Positions 24,572 through 34,211 of a stretch of 35,267 nucleotides of DNA are shown piece after piece. Source of the DNA: a virus (Duplodnaviria; Heunggongvirae; Uroviricota; Caudoviricetes); the IMG/VR virus record IMGVR_UViG_2737471818_000009; one strand, 5' to 3'. Below the pieces are notes generated by a model, which searched no databases, had not been told where the DNA came from, and worked only from the letters and a program-made list of their open reading frames with translations. The translations under genes and the position numbers were made by a program. The first letter of the stretch is position 1. Each line of letters begins with the position of its first letter.

Positions 24572-24876
24572 TAATGGCATAAATTGATGGAGCGGGTCAG
24601 TGAATAAAGAGGCAATACATTCCATCCCTTAGAGCGCCAGCTGTCTGCAACATCTTTACTTCTTGTTATCGCCGGTATTCCAATAGGATTATTTGCGTGC
24701 ATCCATGCCACTGGCTCTGCTTCCAGTGATGCAAGTGCGATTTCCAGTGCGATTAACATATTGTGATCGTCTTCATCAAGACCGAACGGGATGTCTTCGC
24801 GCCACGATTTAAACTCTGTGATTTTACGTTGTAACCATTCTTTGGTAATGGTGGACATAGTTACTCCTGTTTTCAC
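24571..24876 (-). CDS. Hypothetical small protein (95-101 aa) coupled between parR and the Rrf2 gene
   Basis: Position 24874..24876 is GTG overlapping the parR stop; first ATG at 24856..24858; no recognisable motif. Confidence 0.4.
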   Translation of the reverse strand: MKTGVTMSTITKEWLQRKITEFKSWREDIPFGLDEDDHNMLIALEIALASLEAEPVAWMHANNPIGIPAITRSKDVADSWRSKGWNVLPLYSLTRSINLCH

Positions 24877-25187
24877 TTCGGGAAAAACGCCTGAATATTC
24901 TTTTTCACCTGCTGCATATGGGGGGCGCTGTCTGCTGCTGGTTGCGCCGGTTTTTCAGGCTGTACTGGTAGCGGTGGCATCCGTATTTCGTCTTCTGACC
25001 ATTCTGCCAGCGAATACGCCAACGCGGGGGTGCGTTTTATAAGAGCCAGTCCGGCCAGAAAAGCCGCGCGTTGTGCGCGGCTGCGTTCGGAGGCTGGCAG
25101 GCTGTCGAGGTAACTGCACGCCTCCCGTTCGCTCTTGACGACGGTGGGCTTCAGATAGAAACTTATCCGTCTGGTTGGTGTCGTCAT
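24873..25187 (-). CDS. parR: ParR-like centromere-binding protein (type II partition adaptor)
   Basis: 104 aa from ATG 25185..25187 (AGGAG RBS); RRISFYLKP...YLDSLPASERSRAQRAAFLAGLAL parallels plasmid R1 ParR (RRTIAFKLNP...TLDSIPQGERSRLNRAALTAGLAL, recalled); 5 nt after the parM stop. Confidence 0.7.
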   Translation of the reverse strand: MTTPTRRISFYLKPTVVKSEREACSYLDSLPASERSRAQRAAFLAGLALIKRTPALAYSLAEWSEDEIRMPPLPVQPEKPAQPAADSAPHMQQVKKNIQAFFPK

Positions 25188-25191
25188 TGAT

Positions 25192-26151
25192 TTACTCCTG
25201 GTCCATTGCGTACAGCCCATTAACCAGAGCAAACTGTGGCACCCCGTCCGCGATGAAAGTCGCATTAACTCCGCAGGCTTCGCAGATAGCGGGTGCCACA
25301 ATCTCCGCTCCTCCACCTACAACCATCACCCGCCCGTAACCCGAAAAACCCGCCAGCGCGCGGATCACGCGTTGTTTCAGTGTTTCTTCCTTTTCACGAA
25401 TAACTGCCATCAGGCTGGCGTAATGCGCGTCATTGTGGATGTGCTGGCGCAGCCAGGCTTCATCGTGGCGATGTTCGATAATGGTATTGGCGATGTGGTG
25501 ACTGGTGCGCATACCGTTGGTGGCCATCACCGACAGCACGGCATCGGCCATCAGAGAAACGCCTACGTGTGGATCGCAAAACACCTGGCTGATACCTGCC
25601 AGCTGCCCCTGAACCTTTGCCACATCCAGCGTGGTTCCGCCCAAATCCACAATCAGCAGGGATTCAAACGGACTCATGTCGGCCAGTGCTTTAAAGCCAG
25701 CCGGAATGGATTCAGGCATAACCCGCACGTTACGGATAGTGAATGCTTCGCCGTTCTGGTACTCCACCGGGCGCATAACGTTCGCTTTTTTGCGGTTGAT
25801 GTTGGCCATGTCCGGCTGTGCGTTTGTGTCGAAATACTCGCTCAGTGGCAGGGTGACAACCACATCCACCTCCTGTGGCGTGATGCCTGATTTGACCAGC
25901 GCGTGATGAATGGCAATGACATTCACATCGCTGTACTGGTATTGCGTGTCGGTCGTCTGGACAAAGCGATCGCTGACCGGATCAAAACCATAGCGCACAC
26001 CATCAAGCATGTAGTTCGCGGGCTGCGTGCCACCGAACGGCGCAGACCATTCCGACTTGAAGCTGTTCGGGCTGATGGCGTTGCGGCGTTCGCCGTTCTC
26101 AGTCCATGCCAGCTTGATGTTGGTGGAGCCGTCGTCGATACAAATTTTCAT
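25192..26151 (-). CDS. parM: ParM/StbA-like actin-fold partition ATPase
   Basis: 319 aa with IDDGSTNIKL, ISPNSFK, YSDVNVIAIHHAL, RKKANVMRPVE, MPESIPAG, DLGGTTLD and GGGAE motifs, collinear with plasmid R1 ParM. Confidence 0.85.
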   Translation of the reverse strand: MKICIDDGSTNIKLAWTENGERRNAISPNSFKSEWSAPFGGTQPANYMLDGVRYGFDPVSDRFVQTTDTQYQYSDVNVIAIHHALVKSGITPQEVDVVVTLPLSEYFDTNAQPDMANINRKKANVMRPVEYQNGEAFTIRNVRVMPESIPAGFKALADMSPFESLLIVDLGGTTLDVAKVQGQLAGISQVFCDPHVGVSLMADAVLSVMATNGMRTSHHIANTIIEHRHDEAWLRQHIHNDAHYASLMAVIREKEETLKQRVIRALAGFSGYGRVMVVGGGAEIVAPAICEACGVNATFIADGVPQFALVNGLYAMDQE

Positions 26152-29053: not shown

Positions 29054-29439
29054 GGCTGGTATCCCGTCACGCGCTGCCACTCCTGCGAGAAGATGGCGGA
29101 AAGGCGGTTAAATTCAGCGGTGTATTCACTCAGCGAGGCACACCCGCCAGCAGTGCGATGCGCCAGCATTGCCGCGAATACGGAGGCCGGGGAGTCGTAA
29201 TACGCCAGCAGTGATTCGCCGTGTGGTGTCAGGCAGTGCAACGCCAGCCCGTGTGGTGTGAAGTCCACGCGGTAGCAGTCGTCTACTGTGAAATAAAGGG
29301 TGTCCGCATTCTCCGGTTTTGTAGTGCGTGCTCTGTTGTCACGACCACGGATGTAAAGATCAAATAATCCCTGAAGAACGGGAGCCAGACGGGTGTCCTG
29401 TGTGCGCACCCATCTTGTGAAGTCATGAGCGTCAATCAT
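29050..29439 (-). CDS. Hypothetical early protein, 129 aa
   Basis: ATG 29437..29439; stop overlaps the A start; no recognisable motif. Confidence 0.4.
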   Translation of the reverse strand: MIDAHDFTRWVRTQDTRLAPVLQGLFDLYIRGRDNRARTTKPENADTLYFTVDDCYRVDFTPHGLALHCLTPHGESLLAYYDSPASVFAAMLAHRTAGGCASLSEYTAEFNRLSAIFSQEWQRVTGYQP

Positions 29440-29511
29440 GCTGCAATTCTCTTTACTACAGATGTGCGAAGGCCTCCCGCCGCAAGGTGCAGGAAAGGCC
29501 CGGAACAGGAA

Positions 29512-29742
29512 TTAATGGAGTTTGTTTTGCTGCTGGATGAGCTGCTGAAGCTCGCGCAGATCATCCGCCAGATAGCTGAAAACAGCGGATGAATAGAGGT
29601 TTGAAAGTTCGCAGCTACGCTCATGCAGCATATTGATGTGCATGATTTTAGCGACGCGGAATGCGCGGGAAAGTCTGCGGTTGATTTCAGTCTGGATGTG
29701 ACGACGCTCCGCGATAGCGCGGTGCTGTTTGCGGTTTGCCAT
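29512..29742 (-). CDS. Hypothetical early protein, 76 aa, basic
   Basis: ATG 29740..29742; first ORF downstream of a 370-bp structured noncoding region. Confidence 0.35.
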   Translation of the reverse strand: MANRKQHRAIAERRHIQTEINRRLSRAFRVAKIMHINMLHERSCELSNLYSSAVFSYLADDLRELQQLIQQQNKLH

Positions 29743-29921
29743 GGTGTGGCCTCGTGTATAGTAAGTTTTGAAAACTCACCATCCAGAGGTGGAAAACTCG
29801 GGGTGGTGAGACGTACAGGGTTTCCACAACCGGCTATACACGAACCCGGCCCGACCGAAGTCGGCCCCATACGCCCCACCATAATTCTGACGCGAAAAAG
29901 ACGTGGCGATACGGTACGCAC

Positions 29922-29942
29922 AAAAAAACCGCTGGCGCGGTT
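29922..29942 (-). terminator. Rho-independent terminator candidate in the early region
   Basis: plus-strand aaaaaaa then accgc tggc gcggt; on the minus strand the hairpin is followed by a run of T. Confidence 0.35.
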
Positions 29943-30109
29943 GTGCGCGTGTATAGTCAGCGGGGTGGAAATCCCGGCACCCGTTTTATGAGGTGCAGCG
30001 GAAATGTAACCTGACTGATTGCGGCATGGCAAGCGGTTTTTTTGTGAGAACGGCATACTAAAAAATCCTGATGCTGCTCCGGCCAGCGGTTTCCACTGGC
30101 CGGGTTTAA

Positions 30110-30940
30110 TTACTTCACCGGAACAAACGGAACAGCGGTATTACTGGTCATGTATTGCGGCAGCGTGCCGTTCCATTTGTTGATAGCTTCCAGCTCCATA
30201 ACGCCGGGGTTCTGGCGCAGAGCTTCACCGCGCAAACGAATGGCGTCGGCTTCAGCCTGGGCTTTTGTGCGAATGGCATCAGCCTGTCCGGCTGCTTCTG
30301 CGCGTAGCATGTTGGCTTCTGCTTCGCGCTGCTTGACTTCCTGTTCGCGTTGCAGAGTTTTCTGGTTTGCCGTGACTTTGGCATTAATGCTGTCGATAAC
30401 GGTTGGTGGGTATTCCGGTTTACCGACATAAGAGAGGCTCATTACCTGAATGCCGATAGGTGTCATTTCTGCCTGAATGTCTTTAAGTGCTGAATCCAGC
30501 AGTTCAGACTTGCCGCCGTCGATAAATTTATCGGTGGTCATTTTGCTGGCCAGTCGGTTGAGTGCGTCGGCGATCTTCTGGCGCAGGTCAGTGTCGGTAA
30601 TGTCATCCACGCCTTTGCGGTAGGTCTGAAACACTGTAGTAACTTTGGATGGATCAACCTTGTAGGCCACACCGATGTGATAGCCGATGGTTGTGCCGTC
30701 ACTCATCTGAAAGCTGAACGGCTCATCGTAGGTCTTCATTTGTTTGAAGGTTGGGAAGATGTAAACCTCTGTATTCCAGCCTGTCCAGTAGCGGCCAACG
30801 CCAACTACTTCGCCGACGCCTTTGTCGTCGCCCAGCTTGTTGACTTTGATGCCCACATTACCTGGCTCAACGCGATCGCAACCAACCAGCAGGATGGCGG
30901 CAAAAAGCGGGAGAATCTGAAAGAGTTTGAATTTCTTCAT
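30110..30940 (-). CDS. SPFH/band-7 (stomatin/prohibitin-like) lipoprotein
   Basis: 276 aa; signal peptide with lipobox LLVGC; SPFH-like core; C-terminal Ala/Glu/Gln-rich coiled-coil (QREQEVKQREAEANMLRAEAAGQADAIRTKAQAEADAIRLR). Confidence 0.75.
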   Translation of the reverse strand: MKKFKLFQILPLFAAILLVGCDRVEPGNVGIKVNKLGDDKGVGEVVGVGRYWTGWNTEVYIFPTFKQMKTYDEPFSFQMSDGTTIGYHIGVAYKVDPSKVTTVFQTYRKGVDDITDTDLRQKIADALNRLASKMTTDKFIDGGKSELLDSALKDIQAEMTPIGIQVMSLSYVGKPEYPPTVIDSINAKVTANQKTLQREQEVKQREAEANMLRAEAAGQADAIRTKAQAEADAIRLRGEALRQNPGVMELEAINKWNGTLPQYMTSNTAVPFVPVK

Positions 30941-31140
30941 TGTTTGATTTCCTTGATGTACTTACTGAAAAGGCGAACAACGCCTGCCGGGTACAGCATG
31001 GCAATGAAAATGCCCAGCAATACCAGGAAGGAGCTGTCTGATGAAATCATTCGGGGGAGTAGTCCTGCATACAGAATGAGAGAGACGAGGACGCATACCA
31101 GCGCCCACATGTATGCGCGAAACCAGGTCTTTTTGTTCAT
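30937..31140 (-). CDS. Small membrane protein (two TM segments) coupled to the SPFH gene
   Basis: 67 aa, two hydrophobic helices; its stop overlaps the SPFH start (ATGA). Confidence 0.5.
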   Translation of the reverse strand: MNKKTWFRAYMWALVCVLVSLILYAGLLPRMISSDSSFLVLLGIFIAMLYPAGVVRLFSKYIKEIKQ

Positions 31141-31739: not shown

Positions 31740-31940
31740 TTAGTTGCCTGCTTTTTTGCGCAGAACCTGTACATACATCACGTTAGTAGCCGTGTAATGC
31801 TTCCCGTTCTTAAGCCAGATGTGATGAATACCGGGCTCGCTGCGGGAGGGGGCTGTTCTGTCGTGATCGATCAGGCTGTCTTCCACGTCGTATTCAATGC
31901 CGCCCGATGTGAAATGTACGGTTAAGAATGATTTGATCAT
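31740..31940 (-). CDS. Hypothetical early protein, 66 aa
   Basis: ATG 31938..31940 with AGGAG RBS 7 nt upstream. Confidence 0.3.
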   Translation of the reverse strand: MIKSFLTVHFTSGGIEYDVEDSLIDHDRTAPSRSEPGIHHIWLKNGKHYTATNVMYVQVLRKKAGN

Positions 31941-31968
31941 CGCTGTGCTCCTTTGGTTTTTCATGGGG

Positions 31969-32382
31969 TTATGCGTTAAATGGGGAAGAGGTTGCTATGT
32001 CGATGAACGCAATCCGGTCGCGTCTGATGATGTGTACATCACTCAGCGGTTCGCTCTCATTTGCCGGAACCGCAGCAATCATGTAGCTCCCCTGCAGGTC
32101 TGCCAGGATGATGTATTCCTGTTGTGGGTTGTTGATGATAAAGACCCGTTTCCCAATGCTGGGGGAAGAAGTGTTGGTGCCGGCTAATTGAGCTTTGAGA
32201 GTGCTGATTTCGTTGTTCAGGCTTTCAATAAGTCCAGCAGCACTTGCGGTGACTTCTGCTATAGCCATTGAACGAACATAAAAGGGAATAAGCCCTTCTC
32301 TCAGTGCCTGCCTGGCTAATGCATCTTCCATTTCTGATATTTTTTTCAGTTTGGTGATGGTGACTGTATCTTTAGCGTTCAT
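31969..32382 (-). CDS. Hypothetical early protein, 137 aa
   Basis: ATG 32380..32382; no recognisable motif. Confidence 0.35.
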   Translation of the reverse strand: MNAKDTVTITKLKKISEMEDALARQALREGLIPFYVRSMAIAEVTASAAGLIESLNNEISTLKAQLAGTNTSSPSIGKRVFIINNPQQEYIILADLQGSYMIAAVPANESEPLSDVHIIRRDRIAFIDIATSSPFNA

Positions 32383-32474
32383 TTTGTATCCTCGTTATTT
32401 GTGTGTGCGAATACCTCCGCGAGTGCGGATTGTTTTCACGTTTTCTTGTTTAATGTGGTGTTTTATTTGTGCTG

Positions 32475-32588
32475 TTATTCGTCAGAGAAAAAACGCTCAA
32501 TCTTTTTCACTGAATGAATAATTCGCATAATCCCAATAGCGCAGGCCACCGAAATAATCAGAACAAGCCATGAGATAAATATGCTCAT
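32475..32588 (-). CDS. Small hydrophobic peptide (37 aa, single TM), not in the ORF track
   Basis: Hand translation MSIFISWLVLIISVACAIGIMRIIHSVKKIERFFSDE; its ATG overlaps the stop of the upstream 80-aa ORF (ATGA). Confidence 0.35.
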   Translation of the reverse strand: MSIFISWLVLIISVACAIGIMRIIHSVKKIERFFSDE

Positions 32589-32827
32589 GCGATATTCCCC
32601 AGGTTATACGGTTCAATGTGGTCCCCGTTTTCTGCGGCGCAGACGAGTATGGAAAGCTCGTCGAGCGCGTCCGGATCGTCAATGTAAAAAGCCGTGTCGT
32701 ATATACTCTTGATGGCCCTGGTCAATGACTCTTGAGCTGCGCGTTCAGCATGAGTGCCTGATGCGCTTAAGCGAAAATGAAAGCGCTCAAGTGCTTTATT
32801 GACGAGAGTTTTATATTCTTTATCCAT
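32585..32827 (-). CDS. Hypothetical early protein, 80 aa
   Basis: ATG 32825..32827; acidic. Confidence 0.3.
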   Translation of the reverse strand: MDKEYKTLVNKALERFHFRLSASGTHAERAAQESLTRAIKSIYDTAFYIDDPDALDELSILVCAAENGDHIEPYNLGNIA

Positions 32828-32838
32828 CGCAACGCCCT

Positions 32839-33117
32839 TTAATCTGCCTTCTGGATTTCTGCTTCTGAATCCATGCAGATAATTTCGATATATGGTTCAT
32901 CGCCATTAACCTGACGTGCTTTTTCAGCTTCGCTAATAATTTCGCGTACGGTCTGGTACGGAAGTTCCACAAACAATCGCGTGCCGTTCAGATAAAGGTA
33001 AGTAGCCACATCTTTTGCTGCCGGGACTACAGCATCAATAGCCGATGCGCGTAATAACAGTTCACCGCGAAAATCAATAAAACGGATAAATACACCTTGT
33101 GCATGCTCTTTGGTCAT
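32839..33117 (-). CDS. Hypothetical early protein, about 93 aa
   Basis: ATG 33115..33117 chosen to avoid a 50-bp overlap with the upstream gene; the track gives 33177. Confidence 0.3.
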   Translation of the reverse strand: MTKEHAQGVFIRFIDFRGELLLRASAIDAVVPAAKDVATYLYLNGTRLFVELPYQTVREIISEAEKARQVNGDEPYIEIICMDSEAEIQKAD

Positions 33118-33127
33118 AAAGCACCTG

Positions 33128-33469
33128 TTATAAATCAGCCTGTTTAATAAAACTTTGCCCGCGAAGCAGACGATCAACCGTGCGTAGTGCTTCGTATAAT
33201 GTGAAATCCTGCCCGAACTGATTGTCGCCGCAGCTCAATGCAAAAATGCGGTTTCCGGTAAACGGATTGCGTGGGCATTTGTGAACCACGATTCCAGCTT
33301 TCTCAATCAGCCAGGCATGCTCGCCGATTTGTTTTACAGCGTGGCCATCCGGTGTTGCGTGTGTTTCGCTCAGGCTGTAGCGAGAGCTGCTGCGTGATGC
33401 ACTGGTGGCGAAACGGTTAGCGTGGCGTTCAGCCCCATTACGAAAGCGTGAATTACGTTGCTGTTTCAT
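33128..33469 (-). CDS. Hypothetical early protein, 113 aa, first gene after cox
   Basis: ATG 33467..33469; basic N-terminus; no recognisable motif. Confidence 0.35.
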   Translation of the reverse strand: MKQQRNSRFRNGAERHANRFATSASRSSSRYSLSETHATPDGHAVKQIGEHAWLIEKAGIVVHKCPRNPFTGNRIFALSCGDNQFGQDFTLYEALRTVDRLLRGQSFIKQADL

Positions 33470-33487
33470 ATCAAAACTCCCTGCATC

Positions 33488-33814
33488 TCATGCAGCAAAA
33501 TTAAGGAAGCCTAATCCCAAATCTTCCGCCAGCTTCTTGGCTTTATTAAGCCAGTGGTTGCGCCAATCTTTACGCTCAGGAGGAAGCTGTTTCGTTGCGT
33601 CATAGACCATTTCGAGCCACTCGTTCCATAGAATGAGAAGGCGGCGTGAACTTCCTTCCTCGCCTAAAACTTCACGCTCAGTGGCCAGAGGGATGAGTCG
33701 ACGTTCCACCAACTTTCTTACGGCTGATTCGGTCTTGCCCGTGCGGCGAGCAAATTCATCGACGGTGATGGCGTCTGGGATCTTAAACAATGCCCTCAAT
33801 AGTTCTTCATTCAT
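33488..33814 (-). CDS. cox: Cox-like excisionase / early-operon regulator
   Basis: 108 aa, divergent from C; EFARRTGKTESAVRKLVERRLIP and WNEWLEMVYDATK...RKDWRNHWL parallel the architecture of P2 Cox (recalled). Confidence 0.65.
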   Translation of the reverse strand: MNEELLRALFKIPDAITVDEFARRTGKTESAVRKLVERRLIPLATEREVLGEEGSSRRLLILWNEWLEMVYDATKQLPPERKDWRNHWLNKAKKLAEDLGLGFLNFAA

Positions 33815-33908
33815 GTGATAATCTCCCTGTTTGGGGTATAGGTGAGATATTTACCCCATAGTTCAACTCATTGTTTGCATAATGCACTACATATTTGGAG
33901 AATGCAAT
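33815..33908. promoter_or_regulatory. Divergent Pe/Pc-type immunity switch region between cox and C
   Basis: 94-bp intergenic region between divergent genes; inverted repeat TGGGGTA (N14) TACCCCA; GGAG RBS for C. Confidence 0.5.
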
Positions 33909-34211
33909 ATGATTTTGGAGATTGGTGAAAAACTAAAACTAATGCGTGAAAGTGAGCGCATTACAAGTCGCAATGAGGCTGCGGAGTTAATAGGTATTCC
34001 GCATAACGCGCTATGGCGTTATGAGACTGGCGAATCCATACCCAAAGGGGATGTAATGATGAAAATCTTAAATTGTCCGCGGTTCGAAAAATATGCCTTG
34101 TGGTTTATGACTGGAAAAATTGCGCCTGAATCCGGGCAGATAGCTCCGGCTCTCGCACACTATGGGCAAGAGCCAACGGATTTACCCCCATCCGAAAGGA
34201 AAATTGGTTAA
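33909..34211 (+). CDS. C: Immunity repressor C (P2 C family)
   Basis: 100 aa from ATG 33909; C-terminal GDVMMKILNCPRFEKYALWFMTGKIAPESGQIAPALAHYGQ closely matches P2 C as recalled; the track start at 33882 is probably over-extended. Confidence 0.85.
   Translation: MILEIGEKLKLMRESERITSRNEAAELIGIPHNALWRYETGESIPKGDVMMKILNCPRFEKYALWFMTGKIAPESGQIAPALAHYGQEPTDLPPSERKIG

Follow-up and report, generated by a model that had tools for sequence, protein, structure and literature searches.

A conserved 37-residue predicted membrane protein of the P88 gp07 family encoded at the end of the first early block of P88-like prophages

The window analysed here, a stretch of 35,267 nucleotides taken at its full length, carries on its minus strand a 37-aa ORF (MSIFISWLVLIISVACAIGIMRIIHSVKKIERFFSDE, TAA stop included) that is a bona fide gene under protein-level purifying selection. 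Judged by its sequence relationships, the product is a small single-pass membrane protein of the P88 gp07 family, found in P88-like prophages, with a predicted location in the membrane. The gene is one that short-ORF cut-offs hide (a 60-aa cut-off would conceal it) and it already stands in public annotation, where no function is attached to it. A preliminary description of this DNA had pointed to the ORF, and its reading from the sequence agrees with the interval given there; the strand, which had been left unstated, is the minus strand. The coordinates of the features discussed are given in Table 1.

Table 1. Features of the early block and of the peptide gene in the window
Feature	Position	Strand	Basis or remark
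Integrase	34245 to window end	+	divergent from early block
HTH repressor (C)	33882-34211	+	divergent from early block
Cox, head of early block	33488-33814	-	
DUF4761	33128-33469	-	
phrog_3800 protein, 92 aa	32839-33117	-	
DUF4754 / phrog_2549 protein, 80 aa, predicted three-helix bundle	32585..32827	-	Pfam 4e-53, full length
SD-like GGGGAA, 7-12 nt 5' of the peptide ATG	32595..32600	-	within the last DUF4754 codons
ATGA start/stop overlap of the peptide gene with the DUF4754 gene	32585..32588	-	identical in all related loci
Peptide gene, P88 gp07 family, RefSeq WP_041329713.1	32475..32588	-	53/53 loci, sole open frame
Predicted TM helix IFISWLVLIISVACAIGIM, codons 3-21	32526..32582	-	hydropathy, continuous helix, conservation
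Predicted cytoplasmic amphipathic tail RIIHSVKKIERFFSDE, codons 22-37	32478..32525	-	conserved MRII..K.IE, distal residues variable
Conserved hairpin, inner stem UCCGC-ACUC-GCGGA at 32416-32429	32407..32439	-	intergenic, closes early block

The window is a P88-like prophage (Peduoviridae, Xuanwuvirus; P2 family). Over 31900-33500 it is 99.9% identical to a prophage of E. coli ECL27977 that adjoins pheL/pheA and differs downstream, and the related isolated phages are P88, P884B11, 520873, PhiR44_2, vB_EcoM-569R5 and the Citrobacter phage Shae_phiSM. On the minus strand the early block runs from Cox through DUF4761, the phrog_3800 protein and DUF4754 to the peptide gene, which is the last; variable genes follow and finally the gene of the gpA replication endonuclease. 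The peptide gene lies within the conserved block and outside the variable hot-spot region downstream of it, and its upstream neighbour, which had been taken for an early gene, does belong to a Cox-led early operon of a P2-family prophage.

Several other elements of this part of the prophage were recorded. Two RNAs matched Rfam at the gathering threshold, the C4 antisense RNA (RF01695, 77 bits) and isrK (RF01394, 63.5 bits), in tandem positions 29799-29886 (-) and 29922-29996 (-) of the early-operon strand, and the ORF overlapping them (29436-30056) gave a sub-threshold match to Phage_ASH (24.0 bits, cut-off 26). In the ECL27977-type prophage, the RefSeq annotation has a 'derepression protein' in the region that differs from the window, after the early genes and before gpA. 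These observations suggest an RNA-controlled antirepressor module like P1/P7 immI in a P2-family prophage. Further along, a 276-aa lipoprotein with an SPFH/Band 7 domain (Pfam 7.6e-31) and an N-terminal lipobox-like LLVGC (30110-30940, -) is encoded by a gene overlapping by 4 nt the preceding ORF for a 67-aa hydrophobic protein (30937-31140, -). This pair, without a match in PADLOC, is inserted in the early operon as gp11/gp12 are in P88, is absent from the ECL27977 prophage, and is probably a moron or accessory membrane module. Two minus-strand ORFs at 24873-26151, between the portal/terminase region and the gpA gene, correspond to phage partition (ParB-like) PHROGs (phrog_2515 and phrog_691), which is unusual for a classical P2-type genome.

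The start of the peptide gene is embedded in the end of its neighbour. The plus-strand tcat at 32585-32588 reads ATGA on the minus strand, so that the ATG of the peptide gene (32588-32586) overlaps the TGA of the DUF4754 gene (32587-32585), as had been proposed for the stop of the 80-aa ORF. A purine-rich, Shine-Dalgarno-like run precedes the ATG by 7-9 nt in every subfamily; at this position the divergent subfamilies show GAGGAG, AGGAGGAA or GGAGA, and the run is retained while the DUF4754 residues that overlap it vary (LGN, IEE, IQEE or LEM, according to the subfamily). With the ATGA overlap present in every locus and the SD-like run in all subfamilies, the structural arrangement expected of a gene coupled to its upstream neighbour is borne out.

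To assess whether the frame is conserved we used 53 related loci, comprising 49 IMG/VR contigs reached through DUF4754 together with L001-L004. All 53 had the ORF with its ATG in the ATGA overlap, and three more distant loci had it too, again overlapping by 4 nt, which answers in the affirmative the conservation check that the preliminary description had put forward. Among 24 unique in-frame nucleotide variants, the peptide frame is free of stops in every one and the other sense frames in none. The pN/pS of the gene is 0.28 (bootstrap 95% CI 0.14-0.53), with 0.29 for DUF4754 and 0.95-1.16 for the two other sense frames over the peptide gene; for the antisense frame with third positions in common the value is 0.37, as expected, and just 8 of the 24 variants leave that frame open. 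By part, pN/pS is 0.20 for codons 1-21 and 0.40 for codons 22-37. Comparison with the divergent locus L054 (60% nucleotide identity, pS 0.83, pN 0.27) shows that the SW and MRII motifs and the hydrophobic helix have been kept despite saturated synonymous sites. The conserved positions are M1, S6, W7, the small residues at 13, 17 and 19, M21-R22-I-I, K28 and I30; within the helix S6-W7 is invariant and the small residues S/A13, A17 and G19 are conserved.

An exhaustive phmmer search of 1.84 billion representative proteins returned only 7 matches, all from the same family or its 41-aa subfamilies (54-62% identity) and none from a characterised family. On the contigs of these subfamilies the order int, C, cox, DUF4761, 80-aa gene, small ORF is found again, with the 4-nt overlap unchanged. 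We infer that the gene is translated.

The peptide gene is followed at its 3' side by an intergenic region of 92 nt (32383-32474) which is conserved even where the next gene is different. The hairpin within it, of the form (A)UCCGC-N4-GCGGAGG, recurs in L054, L058 and L059, all of them divergent loci, and its stem shows compensatory changes (CCGC/GCGG, CCGU/ACGG, CUGC/GCAG), with four pairs changed on both sides. In the alignment 91.7% of the cells are paired, and on the operon strand the MFE is -14.5 kcal/mol (z -4.0). The position is that of the first early terminator (tR1) in P2 and 186. We rejected the hairpin as a canonical terminator of the early operon, considering that its operon strand has no U-run; only when read on the opposite (+) strand, outside the peptide ORF, does it look like an intrinsic terminator. 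Possible roles are in RNA processing or stability, in termination of an atypical or regulated kind, or as a palindrome bound by a protein.

A conserved non-coding hairpin directly after the ORF, together with a tail that tolerates frameshifts, would be in keeping with a peptide that has no function of its own, where either translation itself matters (for example by preventing Rho-dependent polarity up to the hairpin) or the stretch acts as a DNA or RNA element. We regard this as most improbable, given that selection acts at the amino-acid level, over the whole gene and more so in the TM part, and that the helix and the SW and MRII motifs persist in L054. Moreover, a search of 32200-32900 against Rfam gave no match at the gathering threshold or at E<=10.

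The tail of the gene contains homopolymer runs (window 32478-32510, -), namely A5-A7 at the K28-K29 codons and T6 at F33-F34. Slippage in the A-run yields 30-aa forms in 3 loci and slippage in the T6-run yields common forms of 45 to 50 aa on many contigs. Overall, natural frameshift alleles of 30, 45, 50 and 59 aa were seen (L025, L026, L045, L058), several of them on dozens of contigs. Either the last residues of the peptide are dispensable or the tail is under slippage-driven variation; the commonness of these variants implies that the extreme C-terminus is not essential.

The preliminary description had called the peptide unannotated, which does not hold. In the near-identical prophage RefSeq/PGAP carries a 100% identical hypothetical protein, WP_041329713.1, the O157:H7 counterpart is the hypothetical protein WP_000021655.1, and every E. 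coli row inspected bears the same PGAP label. P88 gp07 (YP_009113050.1), 94.6% identical, is named 'membrane protein', and URC09552.1 of vB_EcoM-569R5, the same gene, is named 'putative membrane protein'; UniRef cluster mates are called 'Prophage membrane protein' and include Salmonella and Shigella entries. P88 gp07, WP_041329713.1 and WP_000021655.1 represent one gene, at 95-100% identity, with 37 aa and the same position and 4-nt overlap after DUF4754. The peptide of the window has in common with P88 gp07 its homology, the ATGA overlap after an 80-aa DUF4754(-like) gene and the Cox-led block, and also the architecture of one N-terminal TM helix with the invariant S6-W7, followed by MRII..K.IE. 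In the protein collection the exact peptide sequence is present on 321 contigs, and the 114-nt ORF occurs at >=90% identity in 997 of 5426 complete E. coli genomes (about 18%), O157:H7 included.

Functional assignments were sought in several ways. No model of Pfam, PHROG, NCBIfam or PADLOC matches the peptide, and PDB searches, by single sequence or by profile, returned no relative; no characterised inhibitor, toxin, holin or defence protein emerged as a homologue from these family-library and PDB searches. The literature yielded nothing on DUF4754 or on the peptide sequence, and the P88 paper is silent on the gene.

The sequence of the peptide is that of one hydrophobic helix, as had been claimed. 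Residues 3-21 are strongly hydrophobic (Kyte-Doolittle mean 2.68, summed Hessa scale -2.9 kcal/mol), carry no charged or strongly polar residue and include an interfacial Trp, and AlphaFold2, supplied with the family alignment, predicted a single unbroken helix over residues 2-35 (pLDDT 87.5). The 'basic tail' of the preliminary description is correct only for the segment next to the membrane: residues 22-37 hold 4 K/R, 1 H and 3 D/E, a mixed charge with a net value of about +1, basic beside the membrane and acidic at the extreme end. This tail has a hydrophobic moment of 0.7-0.84 and a heptad-like hydrophobic face. Following the positive-inside rule, the N-terminus (about 2 residues) would be periplasmic and the Arg/Lys-rich tail cytoplasmic.

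The partner gene upstream offers little guidance. The DUF4754 product is modelled with confidence as a three-helix bundle (pLDDT 89, predicted), and Foldseek comparison of this model with PDB and BFVD gave matches at E >= 0.2 throughout, none of them meaningful; the neighbour therefore gives no functional hint. Database proteins of 104-128 aa labelled 'DUF4754' were considered as natural fusions with the peptide and rejected as mis-called variants: in five, reading continues from DUF4754 across the peptide gene in the wrong frame, and P0090 and P0091 have N-terminal extensions from upstream.

The two proteins diverge at very different rates. In three comparisons the identities of peptide and DUF4754 were 51 vs 26%, 70 vs 43% and 86 vs 44%. 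A mosaic locus was also observed, L053 (IMGVR_UViG_2547132274_000005, 2501-2850), in which a DUF4754 gene with 44% protein identity is followed by a peptide gene with 91% nucleotide and 86% peptide identity, and in which the downstream intergenic region and the next gene are nearly identical to the window. This mosaic suggests that recombination joined the two parts at the ATGA overlap or close to it.

These data bear on the possibility that the peptide serves the DUF4754 bundle as its membrane anchor or partner, joined to it through the tail in a fixed-ratio complex that would tether a phage function to the inner membrane, and that it lacks any host target itself. The two genes always occur together with the 4-nt overlap, including loci where DUF4754 has only 26-43% identity, the predicted DUF4754 fold is a small all-helical bundle that a heptad-like tail of high hydrophobic moment could suit, and both families share the same narrow distribution in Escherichia prophages. 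Against this, the peptide has diverged much less than DUF4754, which gives no indication of the two co-evolving, L053 combines a well conserved peptide with a divergent DUF4754, and frameshift variants of the tail are tolerated. On balance we consider an anchor of this kind rather unlikely.

The size of the peptide and its single hydrophobic helix invite comparison with several groups of small membrane proteins. AcrZ, MgrB, MgtS and CydX are proteins of 30-50 aa with one TM helix, by which they pack on a larger membrane protein, and CydX, like the peptide, has 37 aa, together with an N-terminal TM helix and an acidic end. The peptide shares the length and the single helix of this group; its members are chromosomal whereas the peptide is phage-borne, and a PDB sequence search revealed no similarity in sequence. 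Regulatory small membrane proteins of E. coli have been reviewed (PMC12648545).

The type I toxins (Hok, TisB, Ibs, Ldr, ShoB) are likewise of similar size, with a single hydrophobic helix in the inner membrane, and the peptide has their general character of a small hydrophobic membrane peptide. A membrane-damaging toxin, of type I or holin-like, would oligomerise and depolarise the inner membrane, serving host shutdown or the timing of lysis, and the size, the one hydrophobic helix and the charged C-terminus of the peptide do correspond to type I toxins and small holins (PMC8309996, PMC12648545). The genetic setting is different. The start overlaps the upstream stop in every locus, which is not the layout of an independent transcription unit with a regulatory 5' UTR, and neither an antisense RNA gene nor a dedicated promoter was found; promoter-like sites numbered 3, with 4.0 expected by chance, one being a weak antisense site that is within chance and none serving the peptide gene. 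For these reasons we rejected a type I toxin-antitoxin system. The TM helix also differs from the toxins in having no charged or strongly polar residue, and early depolarisation would presumably harm the replication of the phage itself.

As regards lysis, at least one TMD with a charged C-terminus is a feature of holins, antiholins and spanins that the peptide also has, although it is generic and does not discriminate. A role in a lysis cassette was rejected since the peptide gene, at 32.5 kb in the early operon, is distant from the tail/endolysin region: the tail genes checked and an endolysin-like ORF occupy about 13.6-17.5 kb, roughly 15-19 kb away, and larger ORFs, putatively including the head genes, extend to about 23 kb. 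Taken together, a membrane-damaging activity appears quite improbable, and we think that binding to a partner is more likely than pore formation or lysis.

Small phage inner-membrane proteins are a classic exclusion device, as in T4 Imm and HK97 gp15, and the peptide could by its nature be a superinfection exclusion or anti-phage protein that blocks DNA entry or aborts infection, either in the lytic phase or through leaky expression in lysogens. That the gene is kept in such a large share of complete E. coli genomes, and that P2-family prophages carry the defence genes old and tin, would fit this role. Against it, the gene lies inside the repressor-controlled early lytic operon and not in a lysogenic-conversion slot with its own promoter like old and tin, no promoter-like site serves it, and it belongs to the conserved block instead of a variable hot-spot. 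In addition, PADLOC assigned 0 families to the peptide and only weak matches to its neighbours, none better than E about 1e-4. We consider an exclusion function improbable.

The closest positional parallel was found in phage 186. In P2 the first early block comprises cox, orf78 and B and ends at a putative terminator; in 186 it comprises apl, cII, fil and dhr, followed by tR1. The fil product (75 aa) blocks cell division and the dhr product (66 aa) inhibits host replication, and both are small, overlapping, non-essential genes that close the Cox/Apl-led first early block ahead of a structured element. The DUF4754/peptide pair occupies the same position, at the end of the first early block and before a structured intergenic element, but the element here has no U-run where 186 has tR1. 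Homology to Fil, suggested by IMRIIHSVKK in the peptide and IIRIVHFVIK at the Fil C-terminus, was rejected as being at chance level: BLASTP of the peptide against 186 Fil gave no alignment, by Smith-Waterman the score is 29, with p 0.03-0.04 in shuffling, p rises to 0.25-0.64 for divergent homologs of the peptide, and the match is absent from these homologs. On plain reading of the sequences, neither Fil nor Dhr shows an N-terminal hydrophobic stretch like that of the peptide. The analogy of the pair to fil/dhr is accordingly a weak one of position. A stronger version, in which DUF4754 and the peptide would form a two-gene host take-over module like fil/dhr, with the highly conserved peptide binding and inhibiting a conserved essential inner-membrane machine of E. 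coli (such as the divisome, or lipid II synthesis and flipping), seems to us unlikely; if true, it would establish a new family of phage-encoded micro-inhibitors present in roughly a fifth or more of E. coli genomes.

Small membrane-anchored inhibitors of division or cell-wall synthesis are known from elsewhere, including SPO1 Gp56 and Caulobacter SidA. Like the peptide, these two and Gp11 of PhiNM1 are very small single-pass membrane proteins; they are made early in phage development or after DNA damage and bind membrane proteins of the divisome or the lipid II pathway. They come from other organisms and their sequences are unrelated to the peptide, which makes the comparison an analogy of the 'works like' kind only. 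PhiNM1 Gp11, from a temperate phage of S. aureus, is a small early membrane protein that inhibits host division and peptidoglycan synthesis (PMC11237401).

Considering these comparisons, the reading that we favour, tentatively and at somewhat under an even chance, is that of a translated single-pass inner-membrane protein of the lytic phase, which packs on a host membrane partner and is probably inhibitory. Its topology, the timing of its expression and a host-directed, inhibitory role are what we infer. As the last cistron of the first early lytic block, the gene would be translated in coupling with DUF4754; its expression would follow infection or induction and be repressed in the lysogen, and this lytic-phase expression is proposed by analogy with P2 and 186. 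The helix of residues 3-21 would lie in the inner membrane, its N-terminus on the periplasmic side and the amphipathic tail in the cytoplasm. The small-residue face (S/A13, A17, G19) and the juxtamembrane MRII..K.IE may pack against a conserved membrane-embedded partner of the host. Such packing may serve host take-over in the lytic phase by modulating or inhibiting some process of the envelope.

A host-directed modulator or inhibitor is favoured because of the apolar TM helix, the small-residue face, the interfacial Trp and a peptide that is conserved next to a drifting neighbour; better conservation than that of DUF4754 fits a conserved target. Several points weigh on the other side. Given its tight coupling to DUF4754, the peptide might just as well work for a phage protein, the pair has no homology to fil and dhr, the hairpin is not a canonical terminator on the operon strand, there is no homology to any characterised protein, and frameshift variants of the tail are common. 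As an idea built on analogy, a host inhibitor is plausible.

If this proposal is true, the peptide would explain one conserved 'hypothetical' early gene of a prophage family that is present in about 18% of complete E. coli genomes. With about 30 functional residues it would also be a very compact natural inhibitor of a defined, conserved E. coli target, of use as a probe or as an antibacterial lead.
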